The notes beneath the pieces were generated by a model. The model did not search any database, was not told the DNA's origin, and saw only the letters and a list, made by a program, of their open reading frames with translations. From Escherichia coli (GTDB lineage Bacteria > Pseudomonadota > Gammaproteobacteria > Enterobacterales > Enterobacteriaceae): DNA of 64,000 nt. The stretch is taken from NCBI RefSeq assembly GCF_041886205.1, contig NZ_CP169029.1; one strand, given 5' to 3'. Made by a program: the position numbers and the translations under genes. Positions 19,276 to 53,415 of this stretch are shown one piece after another; position 1 is the first letter of the stretch; every line of letters starts with the position of its first letter.

Positions 19276-19460
19276 GAGCTAATAGTAGGCATACGGACTT
19301 TTTGCGTCGATCAGATTCGTCTCATTAGTTTAAAAACTGTAAAGAATTTGCGACAGGTACTACCAGCTGAATGGCGGTAAGCAGGAAAATATGGGGAAGA
19401 GCAAGCAAATATCAATTAGCGGGGGTTAACAATCAGGCGGCAGAGCCGCCTGATGAGAAA

Positions 19461-20573
19461 TTACTTATTCGGTTTCTCGATTTCGCCAAGTTCTTCGAGA
19501 ATTTCTTCCGGTTGGTCCGTCGGCGGCGGGACTTCTTCCACCCACGCGGCAAACAGACGCCAGGAAACGGCTAACAGAACCGGACCAATAAACAGACCGA
19601 TCATCCCGAAAGCAATCAAACCACCAATAACACCAGAGAGGATCAGGATCAGCGGTAAATCGGCACCCATGCGAATTAACATTGGGCGGATGACGTTATC
19701 CAGCGTGCCAACCACACCGCTCCACACTAACAATACCGTTCCCCAGGTGGTATCGCCAGTCCAGTAGAGCCAGATAATCGCCGGAATCAGTACCGGCAAC
19801 GGGCCAAGCTGGACAAGGCAGGAGAGGATCATTAACACCGTTAGCAACGTTGCATAAGGTACGCCGGATACGGCGAGGCCGATACCGCCAAGCACTGCCT
19901 GTACTAACGCCGTCACCACCACACCCAGCGCCACCGCGCGGATAGCCTGTGCCGCCAGCAGCACGGCGGCATCTCCGCGAACGCCTGCCAGACGGGTTGC
20001 AAAATGGCGAATGCCTTGTGCCACCTGTTCACCGCGCCAGTACAGCAGGGCACTGAAGAGAAGCATCAGCGCACAATGCACCATAAAGCGCCCGATATGC
20101 GCCGCCTGCCCAACGAACCAGGTGGTGGTGGTGCCAATATAAGGGCGGACTTTCGCCATGATCGCCGTCCCCCCCATATCCAGCAAGTTGTGCCAGCCTG
20201 CATACAGCTTCGCGCCAATCACCGGAATGGTATTAAGCCACGCCAGATCGGGTAACGTCATGTCACCGCTGGAAATGGCTTTAATTAGCGGGCCGCTGCC
20301 GTCGACGATACTGTTAACCAGCAAAGCAATAGGGATGATAAACACCATCACTAATAACAGCGTCATCACCAGAACGGCGAGAGAGCGGCGACCAAACATG
20401 ATCTTTTGCAAACGTAACAATACCGGCCAGGTGGCGATAACCACCGTACCGGCCCATGCAAAGCCGAGAATAAAGGGTTGAACAATCCACAGACATGCCA
20501 CAATCATGATGGCTAAAAACAGCACCGAAAGCAGAATTTGTGCGACATCCCTGGGCTGACGAACATTTACCAT
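19461..20573 (-). CDS. ydiK: AI-2E family (UPF0118) inner-membrane transporter
   Basis: 370-aa polytopic ORF recognised as YdiK. Confidence 0.88.
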   Translation of the reverse strand: MVNVRQPRDVAQILLSVLFLAIMIVACLWIVQPFILGFAWAGTVVIATWPVLLRLQKIMFGRRSLAVLVMTLLLVMVFIIPIALLVNSIVDGSGPLIKAISSGDMTLPDLAWLNTIPVIGAKLYAGWHNLLDMGGTAIMAKVRPYIGTTTTWFVGQAAHIGRFMVHCALMLLFSALLYWRGEQVAQGIRHFATRLAGVRGDAAVLLAAQAIRAVALGVVVTALVQAVLGGIGLAVSGVPYATLLTVLMILSCLVQLGPLPVLIPAIIWLYWTGDTTWGTVLLVWSGVVGTLDNVIRPMLIRMGADLPLILILSGVIGGLIAFGMIGLFIGPVLLAVSWRLFAAWVEEVPPPTDQPEEILEELGEIEKPNK

Positions 20574-20961
20574 AACTACTTTTCACCTTTTTTGTGCGTC
20601 AAATCGTCGACGCGACGTGAACACGCGAAACTCACCTGCATAATGATGAGCAATTTCAGCGGTTTTTAACAGGCCGATTCTGCCCTTAATTCTGATGGGC
20701 GTGTTAGAAAAAAATGTGGTACAACAACTCAGGCAACACGCAAACGATTTACTCGTCGTATTTCAAGTTGCATGTGCTGCGGCTACGTTCGTTCACCCCA
20801 GTCACTTACTATTGTAAGCTCCTGGAGTTCACTCGCTTGCCGCCTTCCTGCAACACGAAATCCATAGAGTAAACAAACATCACCTTTCAGTGCGCTATTG
20901 CAGCAGCCTGAAAGAATAGTGTATCGACCTACATCACAGACCGCAGGAAAGGGTCAATATA

Positions 20962-23900
20962 ATGATTCCACAGATTTCCCAGGCACCCGGCGTCGTTCAA
21001 CTGGTGCTTAATTTTTTGCAAGAGCTGGAGCAACAAGGTTTTACCGGCGATACGGCGACAAGTTATGCCGATCGTCTGACAATGTCGACCGACAACAGTA
21101 TTTACCAACTTCTCCCCGATGCGGTGGTATTTCCGCGTTCAACCGCAGATGTGGCGCTGATCGCCCGTCTTGCCGCGCAGGAACGCTATTCATCGCTGAT
21201 CTTTACCCCCCGCGGCGGCGGCACCGGCACTAACGGTCAGGCGCTCAACCAGGGGATTATTGTTGATATGTCCCGCCATATGAACCGCATCATCGAAATT
21301 AACCCTGAAGAGGGCTGGGTGCGCGTTGAGGCCGGGGTGATAAAAGATCAACTCAATCAGTACCTGAAACCGTTCGGCTACTTTTTTGCGCCGGAACTTT
21401 CGACCAGCAACCGGGCAACGCTCGGTGGGATGATCAATACCGATGCATCCGGTCAGGGATCGCTGGTCTATGGCAAAACGTCAGATCACGTACTTGGCGT
21501 ACGCGCGGTGTTGTTGGGGGGCGATATTCTCGATACGCAACCTTTACCCGTCGAATTGGCGGAAACGCTGGGTAAATCCAATACCACAATCGGGCGAATT
21601 TATAACACGGTTTATCAACGTTGCCGTCAGCAACGCCAGTTAATTATCGACAACTTCCCCAAACTTAACCGCTTTCTTACCGGTTACGATCTGCGTCATG
21701 TCTTTAACGATGAGATGACCGAGTTCGACCTGACGCGCATTCTGACGGGTTCAGAAGGGACGCTGGCCTTTATTACCGAAGCGCGGCTGGATATTACACG
21801 CTTGCCTAAAGTGCGCCGTCTGGTGAACGTCAAATATGACTCTTTTGACTCTGCGCTGCGTAACGCGCCGTTTATGGTTGAGGCGCGGGCGCTTTCGGTA
21901 GAGACGGTGGACTCAAAAGTGCTGAATCTGGCGCGGGAAGATATTGTCTGGCATTCCGTCAGCGAGTTGATTACCGATGTGCCTGACCAAGAGATGCTCG
22001 GGCTGAACATTGTGGAATTTGCTGGTGATGATGAGGCGCTGATTGATGAGCGGGTAAATGCACTCTGTGCGCGGTTGGATGAGCTGATCGCCAGTCATCA
22101 AGCAGGTGTCATCGGCTGGCAGGTGTGCCGTGAGCTGGCGGGGGTTGAACGTATCTATGCAATGCGCAAAAAAGCCGTTGGTCTGCTTGGCAATGCCAAA
22201 GGTGCCGCTAAGCCAATTCCGTTTGCTGAGGATACCTGCGTACCGCCGGAACACCTGGCGGATTATATTGCTGAATTTCGCGCGCTGCTCGACAGCCACG
22301 GCTTAAGCTACGGTATGTTCGGTCACGTCGACGCAGGTGTCTTGCACGTCCGTCCAGCGCTGGATATGTGCGATCCTCAACAAGAGATTTTGATGAAGCA
22401 AATCTCTGATGACGTGGTGGCGCTGACTGCGAAATACGGTGGTTTGTTGTGGGGCGAGCACGGCAAAGGTTTTCGCGCTGAATACAGCCCGGCGTTTTTC
22501 GGTGAGGAACTTTTTGCAGAACTGCGCAAAGTGAAAGCGGCATTTGACCCGCATAACCGACTCAACCCAGGGAAGATTTGCCCGCCAGAAGGTCTCGATG
22601 CGCCGATGATGAAAGTGGACGCGGTGAAGCGCGGTACATTCGATCGGCAGATCCCCATTGCGGTACGCCAGCAGTGGCGCGGTGCGATGGAGTGTAACGG
22701 CAACGGTTTATGCTTCAACTTTGATGCCCGTAGTCCGATGTGTCCGTCGATGAAGATCACCCAGAACCGGATTCATTCACCGAAAGGGCGCGCAACGCTG
22801 GTGCGTGAATGGCTGCGTTTGTTGGCGGATCGCGGCGTTGATCCACTCAAACTGGAACAAGAACTGCCTGAATCCGGCGTCAGTTTGCGGACGTTAATTG
22901 CCCGCACGCGCAATAGCTGGCATGCGAATAAAGGCGAATATGACTTCTCACACGAAGTCAAAGAGGCGATGTCGGGCTGTCTGGCCTGTAAAGCGTGTTC
23001 GACCCAGTGCCCCATCAAAATTGATGTGCCGGAGTTTCGCTCTCGTTTTCTGCAGCTCTATCACACCCGTTATTTACGCCCGCTGCGCGACCACCTCGTC
23101 GCTACGGTCGAGAGCTACGCGCCGCTGATGGCACGCGCGCCGAAAACCTTTAACTTCTTCATTAACCAGCCGCTGGTGCGCAAACTCTCGGAAAAACATA
23201 TCGGCATGGTTGATTTGCCGCTGCTGTCGGTCCCCTCGCTACAACAACAAATGGTGGGGCATCGCTCGGCAAACATGACGCTGGAACAGCTTGAATCTCT
23301 CAATGCAGAGCAGAAAGCGCGCACAGTGTTGGTGGTGCAGGACCCCTTTACCAGCTATTACGATGCGCAAGTGGTGGCGGATTTTGTCCGTCTGGTCGAA
23401 AAATTAGGTTTCCAGCCTGTGTTACTGCCATTTTCGCCAAATGGCAAAGCCCAGCATATTAAAGGTTTTCTTAATCGTTTTGCGAAGACGGCGAAAAAGA
23501 CGGCGGATTTCCTCAACCGTATGGCGAAGCTGGGTATGCCAATGGTGGGCGTCGATCCGGCGCTGGTACTTTGTTATCGCGATGAATATAAACTGGCGCT
23601 GGGCGAGGAGCGTGGCGAGTTTAACGTCTTACTGGCGAATGAATGGCTGGCAAGCGCACTTGAGTCACAGCCAGTGGCTACAGTCAGCGGTGAATCATGG
23701 TATTTCTTTGGTCACTGTACCGAAGTTACCGCCTTGCCGGGTGCGCCAGCACAATGGGCCGCGATATTTGCCCGTTTTGGCGCGAAACTGGAAAATGTCA
23801 GCGTGGGTTGCTGCGGCATGGCAGGGACTTACGGACATGAAGCGAAAAACCATGAAAATTCGCTCGGGATCTATGAGTTATCCTGGCATCAGGCTATGCA

Positions 23901-24018
23901 GCGACTGCCGCGTAACCGCTGTCTGGCGACCGGATATTCCTGCCGTAGCCAGGTAAAACGGGTTGAAGGCACGGGGGTACGCCATCCTGTGCAGGCTTTA
24001 CTGGAGATTATTAAATGA
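20962..24018 (+). CDS. ydiJ: FAD-linked oxidoreductase with C-terminal Fe-S / CCG domains (reported D-2-hydroxyglutarate dehydrogenase)
   Basis: 1018-aa ORF; FAD-binding PCMH domain N-terminal, Cys clusters C-terminal. Confidence 0.9.
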   Translation: MIPQISQAPGVVQLVLNFLQELEQQGFTGDTATSYADRLTMSTDNSIYQLLPDAVVFPRSTADVALIARLAAQERYSSLIFTPRGGGTGTNGQALNQGIIVDMSRHMNRIIEINPEEGWVRVEAGVIKDQLNQYLKPFGYFFAPELSTSNRATLGGMINTDASGQGSLVYGKTSDHVLGVRAVLLGGDILDTQPLPVELAETLGKSNTTIGRIYNTVYQRCRQQRQLIIDNFPKLNRFLTGYDLRHVFNDEMTEFDLTRILTGSEGTLAFITEARLDITRLPKVRRLVNVKYDSFDSALRNAPFMVEARALSVETVDSKVLNLAREDIVWHSVSELITDVPDQEMLGLNIVEFAGDDEALIDERVNALCARLDELIASHQAGVIGWQVCRELAGVERIYAMRKKAVGLLGNAKGAAKPIPFAEDTCVPPEHLADYIAEFRALLDSHGLSYGMFGHVDAGVLHVRPALDMCDPQQEILMKQISDDVVALTAKYGGLLWGEHGKGFRAEYSPAFFGEELFAELRKVKAAFDPHNRLNPGKICPPEGLDAPMMKVDAVKRGTFDRQIPIAVRQQWRGAMECNGNGLCFNFDARSPMCPSMKITQNRIHSPKGRATLVREWLRLLADRGVDPLKLEQELPESGVSLRTLIARTRNSWHANKGEYDFSHEVKEAMSGCLACKACSTQCPIKIDVPEFRSRFLQLYHTRYLRPLRDHLVATVESYAPLMARAPKTFNFFINQPLVRKLSEKHIGMVDLPLLSVPSLQQQMVGHRSANMTLEQLESLNAEQKARTVLVVQDPFTSYYDAQVVADFVRLVEKLGFQPVLLPFSPNGKAQHIKGFLNRFAKTAKKTADFLNRMAKLGMPMVGVDPALVLCYRDEYKLALGEERGEFNVLLANEWLASALESQPVATVSGESWYFFGHCTEVTALPGAPAQWAAIFARFGAKLENVSVGCCGMAGTYGHEAKNHENSLGIYELSWHQAMQRLPRNRCLATGYSCRSQVKRVEGTGVRHPVQALLEIIK

Positions 24019-24425
24019 TATGGAAACGGAAAATCACCCTGGAAGCACTGAATGCTATGGGTGAAGGAAACATGGTGGGGTTCCTGGATATTCGCTTTGA
24101 ACATATTGGTGATGACACCCTTGAAGCGACAATGCCAGTAGACTCGCGGACAAAGCAGCCTTTCGGGTTGCTGCATGGAGGAGCATCCGTGGTACTGGCC
24201 GAAAGTATCGGTTCCGTTGCCGGTTATTTATGTACCGAAGGTGAGCAAAAAGTGGTTGGTCTGGAAATCAATGCTAACCACGTCCGCTCGGCACGAGAAG
24301 GGCGGGTGCGCGGCGTATGCAAACCGTTGCATCTCGGTTCGCGTCACCAGGTCTGGCAGATTGAAATCTTCGATGAGAAAGGGCGTTTGTGCTGTTCGTC
24401 ACGATTGACGACCGCCATTTTGTGA
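24015..24425 (+). CDS. menI: 1,4-dihydroxy-2-naphthoyl-CoA hydrolase (hotdog-fold thioesterase)
   Basis: 136-aa ORF recognised as YdiI/MenI; start overlaps ydiJ stop. Confidence 0.9.
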   Translation: MIWKRKITLEALNAMGEGNMVGFLDIRFEHIGDDTLEATMPVDSRTKQPFGLLHGGASVVLAESIGSVAGYLCTEGEQKVVGLEINANHVRSAREGRVRGVCKPLHLGSRHQVWQIEIFDEKGRLCCSSRLTTAIL

Positions 24426-51162: not shown

Positions 51163-52095
51163 ATGTGGTCAGAATATTCACTCGAAGTTGTTGATGCGGT
51201 AGCGCGTAATGGTAGTTTTAGCGCTGCGGCACAGGAGCTGCATCGCGTTCCTTCTGCGGTCAGCTATACCGTGCGTCAGCTGGAAGAGTGGCTGGCGGTG
51301 CCGCTCTTTGAAAGACGGCACCGTGATGTGGAACTGACCGCTGCCGGGGCGTGGTTTCTCAAAGAAGGGCGCTCTGTTGTCAAAAAAATGCAGATCACCC
51401 GCCAGCAATGTCAGCAGATAGCGAACGGCTGGCGCGGTCAGTTAGCTATCGCAGTGGATAATATTGTCAGGCCAGAACGTACACGGCAGATGATCGTTGA
51501 TTTTTATCGCCATTTTGACGACGTCGAACTTCTGGTCTTTCAGGAAGTGTTTAACGGTGTCTGGGATGCGCTTTCCGATGGGCGCGTGGAACTGGCGATT
51601 GGCGCAACACGCGCGATTCCGGTAGGCGGTCGTTATGCCTTCCGGGATATGGGGATGCTAAGCTGGAGTTGCGTTGTTGCCAGCCACCACCCGCTGGCGT
51701 TGATGGATGGCCCGTTCAGCGATGATACGTTGCGCAACTGGCCGTCGTTGGTGCGCGAAGACACCTCGCGAACGCTACCTAAACGTATTACCTGGTTGCT
51801 GGATAACCAAAAAAGAGTTGTCGTGCCTGACTGGGAATCATCGGCAACCTGTATCTCGGCAGGATTATGCATAGGGATGGTGCCAACACATTTCGCCAAA
51901 CCGTGGCTTAATGAGGGGAAGTGGGTAGCACTTGAATTGGAGAACCCCTTCCCGGATTCGGCATGTTGTCTGACATGGCAGCAAAATGATATGTCGCCTG
52001 CGTTAACCTGGCTGCTTGAGTATCTCGGCGATAGTGAGACGCTGAATAAGGAGTGGCTGCGGGAGCCGGAAGAGACTCCCGCAACGGGTGATTAA
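51163..52095 (+). CDS. punR: LysR-family transcriptional regulator
   Basis: 310-aa ORF with N-terminal HTH; divergent from punC. Confidence 0.88.
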
Positions 52096-53117
52096 CGACG
52101 ATAGTCGCGGAACGGGCCGTCAGCCACGGAGCGGCGTTCAATCAAACGCGGATGCACTTCAATGGACTGCGGTTCTTCACGTTTGTTGACGATACGATCC
52201 AACAGCATGTTGAACGCTGTTTCACCCAGCGAATCTTTTGGCTGATGGATCGTGGTCAGCGCCGGCGTAAAATAGCGCGCGTTGCGCACGTTATCATAAC
52301 CGATCAGCGAAACATCCTGCGGGACGCGCAGGCCCATTTCATCAGCAGCACAAAGTGCGCCCATTGCCATGATATCGCCACCACAGAAGACGGCAGTAGG
52401 GCGATGCGGCTGCGACAGGATTTGCTGCATGGCGCGATAACCAGATTCGGGTTCAAAGTCACCCTGCACAATCCAGCTTTCCGGCACCTTTATCATCGCT
52501 TCTTCCATCGCCTTCATAAAACCGGCAAGGCGGCCTGCGCCGGTGTTACGTTCCAGCGGGCCGGGGATGACGCCGATTTCGCGGTGGCCGCGTTCAATCA
52601 GATAACGCCCGGCCATGTAGCCGCCTTCGAACGCGTTATCAATGACCGCATCGGTGAAGTCAGCTTTTGCTTCACCCCAGTCCATGACCACCATTGGGAT
52701 ATGGCGATACTCTTCCAGCATCGCCAGCAACGGCTCTGGGTACTCAGAACACATCACCAGCAGACCATCGACGCGTTTTTGCGCCATCATCGACAGATAA
52801 GCCCGCTGTTTCTCAAGATTGTTCCACGCATTACCCAGAATCAGGGTGTAACCTTTCTGGAAGCAATTTTTTTCAACCGCTTCAATGATCTCGGCAAAAT
52901 AGGCCGCTTCGCTGCTGGTCGCCAGCAAACCGATAGACTTGGTGTGGTTAACCTTCAGGCTACGCGCCACCGCGCTAGGGGAGTAGTGTAATTCTTTAAT
53001 CGCTGCCCACACGGCGTTGCGCGTTTCTTCAGCGACGAAACGTGTTTTGTTGATCACGTGTGACACAGTTGTAGTGGAAACGTTTGCTCGTTTCGCTACA
53101 TCTTTTATTGTTGCCAT
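52092..53117 (-). CDS. purR: purine repressor (LacI family)
   Basis: 341-aa [36 protein letters not shown]... Confidence 0.96.
53075..53090. promoter_or_regulatory. PurR operator-like palindrome (CGAGCAAACGTTTCCA) inside the 5' end of purR
   Basis: Match to PurR box core GCAAACGTTT; purR is known to be autoregulated through downstream operators. Confidence 0.6.
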
Positions 53118-53161
53118 TCCATTTCACTCCAGACCCTAACTTCAGCTCCTGCAAAATCGCA

Positions 53162-53177
53162 AGGTAAACGTTTGCCT
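53162..53177. promoter_or_regulatory. PurR operator-like palindrome (AGGCAAACGTTTACCT) in the purR leader
   Basis: Match to PurR box core about 45 bp upstream of the purR start codon. Confidence 0.6.
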
Positions 53178-53415
53178 TTACACACCTTACGCACAACAAA
53201 AGTGTTGCGGTACGCCGGAAAAACGACACGGAGCGTCAGGAAGGGGTCAATGGCCAGTACGCAAATAGTGTAAGCGTGGAATTTTGGCCGATCTTGACGA
53301 AAAGGGGAAGTGGTAAAAACACTTATCATTATAAATGACGGGAGATTTTTTCATCACAGTGTGTAAAAATGCGTAATATCACTTTTTGTGTGGTAATAAA
53401 AAAGGAGAAAACTTG

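Follow-up and report, generated by a model that had tools for sequence, protein, structure and literature searches.

The window, a stretch of 64,000 nucleotides from an Escherichia coli genome (contig NZ_CP169029.1), carries purR on its minus strand at 52092..53117, with the ATG at 53117. Both the list of open reading frames and the RefSeq annotation give a product of 341 aa, and the same purR annotation for a 341-aa product occurs in more than 5,400 E. coli genomes. Residues 2-341 match the crystallised E. coli purine repressor (1PNR and related PDB entries, E = 9e-231), and the product is the repressor that binds the two operators described below. The gene is flanked by punR and punC on one side and by cydH, ydhP, and sodB on the other, and the intergenic region between purR and cydH, which contains the first of the operators, is 298 bp long. 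The 801 bp around the operators are annotated as purR / cydH / ydhP, and 5,423 out of 5,426 complete E. coli genomes carry them at 99-100% identity. This segment is 100% identical to that of strain RM14723, whose record is offset from the window coordinates by approximately 1.3 kb. In the RM14723 annotation, ydiJ, ydiK, and menI are frameshifted pseudogenes; in the window, ORFs of 1018 aa and 370 aa are intact at approximately 19400..24100. One genome (NZ_CP014488.1) is without most of the 801-bp region.

Two 16-bp PurR boxes were read from the sequence, both on the minus strand. O1 (purRo1) occupies 53162..53177 in the leader, at -60..-45 from the ATG. It reads AGGCAAACGTTTACCT on the purR strand (...GTGTAA AGGCAAACGTTTACCT TGCG...) and AGGTAAACGTTTGCCT on the plus strand, and has three mismatches to the ideal palindrome ACGCAAACGTTTGCGT. 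O2 (purRo2) is a weak box at 53074..53089, reads GAGCAAACGTTTCCAC on the purR strand (...AAAC GAGCAAACGTTTCCAC TACA...), and has five mismatches to the ideal palindrome. It spans purR codons 10-15, which encode R-A-N-V-S-T, a part of PurR's own helix-turn-helix (HTH). The centres of the two boxes are 88 bp apart. Both have the form of a PUR box, with the core GCAAACGTTT and a 16-bp imperfect palindrome with a central CG (core AAACGTTT, motif ACGNAAACGTTTGCNT). The core 10-mer GCAAACGTTT is present in exactly two copies in the 64-kb window, at 53078..53087 and 53166..53175 and both on the minus strand; 0.39 matches are expected by chance per window, and two or more copies appeared in 6 of 100 shuffles. 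A sequence-only reading of this DNA had placed one box inside the early codons of purR and the other in the leader, which is borne out by the positions at codons 10-15 and -60..-45; its coordinates were exact for O1 (53162-53177) and 1 bp off for O2, which it had put at 53075-53090.

The segment 52980..53420 (441 bp, minus strand) is 100% identical to K-12 MG1655 (NC_000913.3), without a single difference, and O1 and O2 are therefore the K-12 sites base for base (positions 1737784-1737799 and 1737872-1737887, respectively). The claim of the sequence-only reading that the regulatory architecture is intact here thus stands. The plus-strand reading of O1 is the motif tabulated for the purR ChIP-chip peak (PMC3159470). 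The tables of Qian et al. 2016 list AGGCAAACGTTTACC at 1737791 and GAGCAAACGTTTCCAC at 1737872-1737887 and state, with reference to Meng et al. 1990 and Rolfes & Zalkin 1990, that these sites overlap PurR operators (PMC5110547). Compared with purRo1 and purRo2 of E. coli K-12 (Rolfes & Zalkin 1990), the boxes in the window have the same sequence, spacing, and position relative to the ATG, with no detectable difference, and the same placement, with purRo1 in the leader and purRo2 in the coding region. O1 and O2 are the long-known autoregulatory operators purRo1 and purRo2. Beyond annotation the result has little consequence, as textbook purR autoregulation is unchanged; it illustrates that reading raw sequence by core words can find such an architecture.

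The operator architecture of purR in the window is intact and represents the E. coli norm. Of 5,424 E. coli genomes, 5,337 match a 131-bp segment with both boxes at 99% identity or more; when the genome ranking was sampled at 25 evenly spaced rows, 20 of these were 100% identical. The lowest-ranked genome among the rows listed, out of the 5,424 matching genomes, is NZ_CP178859.1, an assembly labelled E. coli HB101. There, an IS30 element interrupts the 5' end of purR at a point between the two boxes, close to window position 53097/53098, and parts the promoter and O1 from O2 and the remainder of purR.

We scored the boxes with a PurR position-weight matrix (PWM) made from 27 published motifs (Cho et al. 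2011 Table 1, PMC3159470), from which purR's own site was excluded; both strands were scanned, and 300 dinucleotide-preserving shuffles of the window served as the null. O1 is near-consensus: it scores 21.5 bits and ranks first in the window, and a score of at least 21.5 bits appeared in 2 of 300 shuffles. The leave-one-out scores of the training sites have a median of 19.0 bits and range from 7.4 to 25.0. O2 scores 10.35 bits, ranks seventh among the strand-positions of the window, and outscores just two of the 27 training sites, the weakest ones (gadX, 7.4 bits, and fabB, 9.3 bits). The notion of two near-consensus PurR operators, put forward in the sequence-only reading, thus holds for O1 and fails for O2, whose score is at chance level for 64 kb; with O1 at 21.5 bits, the two sites do not both fall below threshold. 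A pair consisting of one site of at least 18 bits and one of at least 10.35 bits within 16-120 bp was found in 2 of 300 shuffles. What lends significance to the weak O2 box is solely where it lies, that it is paired with O1, and that it is conserved.

The weakness of O2 bears on a reading in which only O1 is real and O2 is a chance resemblance that arises from the R-A-N-V-S-T codons and has no regulatory role. Six sites of at least 10.35 bits were seen in the window where 7.5 are expected (mean of the 300 shuffles), and the five palindrome mismatches and the single purR motif, O1, given in Cho 2011 Table 1 (PMC3159470) also speak for it. We consider this reading extremely unlikely given the evolutionary record of the locus, which we followed through the purR loci of 80 Enterobacteriaceae species (PurR protein identity 92-100%).

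The codons of the O2 core, 11-14 (GCA AAC GTT TCC), have a synonymous conservation of 0.991 and rank first among the 201 four-codon windows of purR. The gene mean is 0.684, only 7.8% of its codons reach 0.95 or more, and codons 6-10, just upstream of the O2 core, are ordinary (0.51-0.85). Such a pattern is a strong argument that selection preserves O2 at the DNA level as well as through the encoded protein, and against a box that exists by chance. If codons were chosen uniformly, the peptide A-N-V-S would be encoded by exactly this DNA about once in 192 cases, which also counts against chance. The O2 16-mer is GAGCAAACGTTTCCAC or GCGCAAACGTTTCCAC in 76 of the 80 species, and a 77th species has TCGCAAACGTTTCCAC, in which positions 2-16 are unchanged. 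The variant GCGCAAAC, present in 42 of 80 species, is nearer to the consensus and scores 12.9 bits, again contrary to a chance origin. Finally, the title of Rolfes & Zalkin 1990 and citations of that work have it that two sites are required for purR autoregulation.

O1 was found in all 80 species, at -57..-60 from the ATG. The 16-mer is identical in 57 of them, and the variants alter only positions 2, 10, 13, 15, or 16. In an alignment of the 80 species from -300 to +180, no other 16-nt window in the 300 bp upstream of purR is as conserved as O1, with an identity to E. coli of 0.977 compared with 0.667 in its immediate flanks and 0.747 in the rest of the upstream region. Both boxes are under nucleotide-level purifying selection across the Enterobacteriaceae. 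The intragenic O2 is thus a weak site that is invisible to a PWM threshold, yet under clear nucleotide-level selection in 80 species.

PurR reportedly binds the two operators non-cooperatively and with an approximately 6-fold higher affinity for O1, and the gap between the PWM scores of O1 and O2 fits this difference. The coding constraint of PurR's own HTH probably caps the affinity of O2: judging from the codons, the right half of the box (GTT TCC AC) could not approach the consensus GTTTGCGT without altering the conserved residues V13-S14-T15, which would keep O2 weak.

A sigma-70 promoter scan of the purR strand of the 298-bp intergenic region returned no site. A relaxed -35/-10 scan combined with conservation points to a candidate purR promoter at 53281..53309 on the minus strand, composed of TTCCCC (-192..-187), a 17-nt spacer, and CAAAAT (-169..-164). 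Its hexamers have identities of 0.97 and 1.0 across the 80 species, and it implies a transcription start near -157, which would place O1 near +105. Rival candidates from the relaxed scan are TATAAT at -216, which is unconserved, and TACACT at -155. The promoter-like candidates imply starts at -204, -157, -143, and -99, all upstream of O1, and every one of them lies at least approximately 40 nt upstream of O1. Being within the ORF, O2 is necessarily downstream of the transcription start. Reportedly, O1 is located between the points where transcription and translation begin, with O2 in the coding sequence. The sequence-only reading had taken the boxes for the known autoregulation of purR by operators downstream of the promoter. 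The autoregulatory part of this claim is supported by the identity to K-12; the placement downstream of the promoter comes from the literature and, for O2, from its location inside the ORF.

The leader also contains a block of approximately 50 nt at 53212..53262 (-145..-95; GCGTACTGGCCATTGACCCCTTCCTGACGCTCCGTGTCGTTTTTCCGGCG) with a conservation of approximately 0.93 over the 80 species, almost the level of O1. The block includes an intrinsic-terminator-like hairpin at 53238..53224, which we rejected: two such hairpins were found where 1.1 are expected, and there is no supporting covariation. RNAalifold on sequences of 18 genera gave no supported consensus RNA structure for the block (-2.2 kcal/mol, five pairs). 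Closer to the gene, GGAG at 53127..53130 (-13..-10, minus strand) is a candidate Shine-Dalgarno sequence inside the conserved block GGTCTGGAGTGA and would be the ribosome binding site of purR. An out-of-frame ATG at 53120..53122 on the minus strand, 5 nt upstream of the purR start, is nearer to this GGAG and opens a 5-codon ORF (MEWQQ and a stop). We rejected this short upstream ORF because its ATG (at 53122) is not conserved, with the G kept in approximately 40% of the 80 species.

We propose that, in the presence of hypoxanthine or guanine, PurR dimers carrying the corepressor would occupy the strong O1 in the leader and the weak O2 in codons 10-15. PurR bound there, downstream of the transcription start, would impede transcription after initiation as a roadblock, and the outcome would be a modest negative feedback on PurR synthesis. 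With both boxes downstream of the start, as the literature has it, PurR could bind without competing against RNA polymerase for the promoter. It is very probable that O1 and O2 are PurR autoregulatory operators that act downstream of the promoter by impeding transcription. Autoregulation of purR reportedly amounts to 2-3-fold and is abolished by mutation of either operator.

ChIP-chip shows that PurR occupies the purR region in vivo with adenine, and the authors of that study write that PurR "directly autoregulates itself" (PMC3159470). The bound region is 568 bp long, which is too coarse to separate O1 from O2, and the table names the O1 motif only (PMC3159470). For purB and purR, the same study asserts that PurR binds inside the ORF and thereby blocks elongation (PMC3159470). 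Direct experimental demonstration of the roadblock comes from the PurR site of purB, according to citations of He & Zalkin 1992. The corepressors of PurR given in the literature are hypoxanthine and guanine.

The two operators could also be joined by a DNA loop, as in lac or gal, instead of forming two independent roadblocks. Looping that joins an operator near the promoter to one inside the gene is known from other LacI-family repressors, and the purR operators, 88 bp apart and both reported to be required, would be compatible with such an arrangement. We regard a loop as very unlikely for several reasons. The distance between the box centres drifts from 85 to 88 bp among genera in the 80 species, with O1 at -60, -59, -58, and -57 in 52, 21, 4, and 3 species, respectively; this variable spacing argues against strict helical phasing and would fit independent binding better than a phased loop. 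A distance of 88 bp corresponds to approximately 8.4 turns, which also counts against a loop. PurR is a dimer without the tetramerisation helix of LacI, and its binding to the two sites is, as noted, said to be non-cooperative. If both sites are downstream of the start, a loop would furthermore not enclose the promoter.

The purR operators share features with other PurR-controlled genes. As in the intragenic PurR operator of purB (He & Zalkin 1992), which represses by elongation block and gives a weak, few-fold repression, there is a box downstream of the start and inside the reading frame. The purB operator is a single site deep in the ORF, whereas at purR the leader and the ORF each contain one site, and the target gene encodes the repressor itself. 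The promoter-overlapping PUR boxes of purF, purT, purL, purHD, and others have the same 16-bp motif ACGNAAACGTTTGCNT, repressor, and corepressor. In the pur regulon, approximately 44% of the boxes are situated between -35 and -10, where they block initiation and give stronger repression, in contrast to the purR boxes, which probably lie far downstream of the start.

Another LacI-family repressor is known to contact these sites, and the boxes might mainly be GalR/GalS or hybrid PurR/GalR operators through which galactose would act on the expression of purR. The operators of GalR (gal OE/OI and ChIP-defined sites) have in common with the purR boxes the LacI-family 16-bp palindrome with a central CG, and GalR binds the purR boxes in vivo (PMC5110547). 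The ynhF/purR ChIP-chip peak of GalR, with a score of 9.5, was validated by ChIP-qPCR, both boxes are tabulated as inferred GalR sites, and the right half of O2 (TTTCCAC) is GalR-like (PMC5110547). With a GalR PWM made from the 15 other GalR ChIP sites, O2 scores 12.2 bits and O1 11.3 bits, ranking third and sixth in the window. These scores are nonetheless below the weakest of the 15 ChIP sites (leave-one-out minimum 12.6 bits, median 19.2), on which ground a GalR-only identity of O1 and O2 was rejected. In addition, little or no GalR-dependent change in the expression of these genes is reported (PMC5110547). As a PurR site, O1 scores 21.5 bits, and occupancy by GalR may coexist with control by PurR without replacing it. 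Operators that serve mainly GalR are therefore unlikely, and the low GalR scores make GalR a possible secondary occupant of the sites and not their identity, which remains that of PurR operators.

A segment of purR mRNA predicted to pair with the small RNA SgrS, at 53055..53076 on the minus strand (+42..+63, codons 14-21), abuts and overlaps the 3' edge of O2. The site by which SgrS represses translation of purR is placed "within the first 34 codons" in the literature (PMC8634553). When SgrS nt 164-187 are paired locally along the whole purR mRNA, the best predicted duplex lies at +42..+63 with -22.9 kcal/mol, a value reached in 8 of 100 shuffles, and includes a 10-bp run in which purR GUCACACGUG pairs with SgrS CAUGUGUGAC. 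Strong complementarity is mostly confined to Escherichia-like sequences, with -18 kcal/mol or lower in 13 of the 80 species, and in most other genera the predicted pairing has only -14 to -15 kcal/mol.

Synonymous conservation continues past O2 and is very high in purR codons 15-22 (window 53050..53075; for example, ACA 0.975, TCA 1.0, and ATC 0.925). Codons 15-19 are well above the gene mean despite the presence of rare codons, which in the stretch 15-22 are ACA, GTA, and TCA. Pairing with SgrS is plausible as a cause of this conservation in E. coli (-22.9 kcal/mol), but does not explain the cross-genus signal, since most genera pair with SgrS only at -14 to -15 kcal/mol. As the constraint on codons 15-22 goes beyond the 16-bp box and, outside Escherichia, beyond the predicted SgrS pairing, we tentatively raise the possibility, doubtful as it is, that the stretch encoding the recognition helix harbours an additional, hitherto undescribed cis element superimposed on O2 and, in E. 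coli, also on the SgrS site. Such an element may be an extended PurR or GalR footprint, the site of another protein, or an mRNA element.

The second-best PurR box of the window, AGTAAATCGTTTGCGT at 20738..20753 on the minus strand, scores 18.6 bits and is located between the divergent genes ydiK (19461..20573, minus strand) and ydiJ (20962..24018, plus strand). An identical box is present in K-12 at 1768894-1768909 and falls, after a coordinate shift of 1,976 bp, inside the ydiJ/ydiK region bound by PurR in ChIP-chip, which has no motif assigned to it in Cho 2011 Table 1 (PMC3159470).
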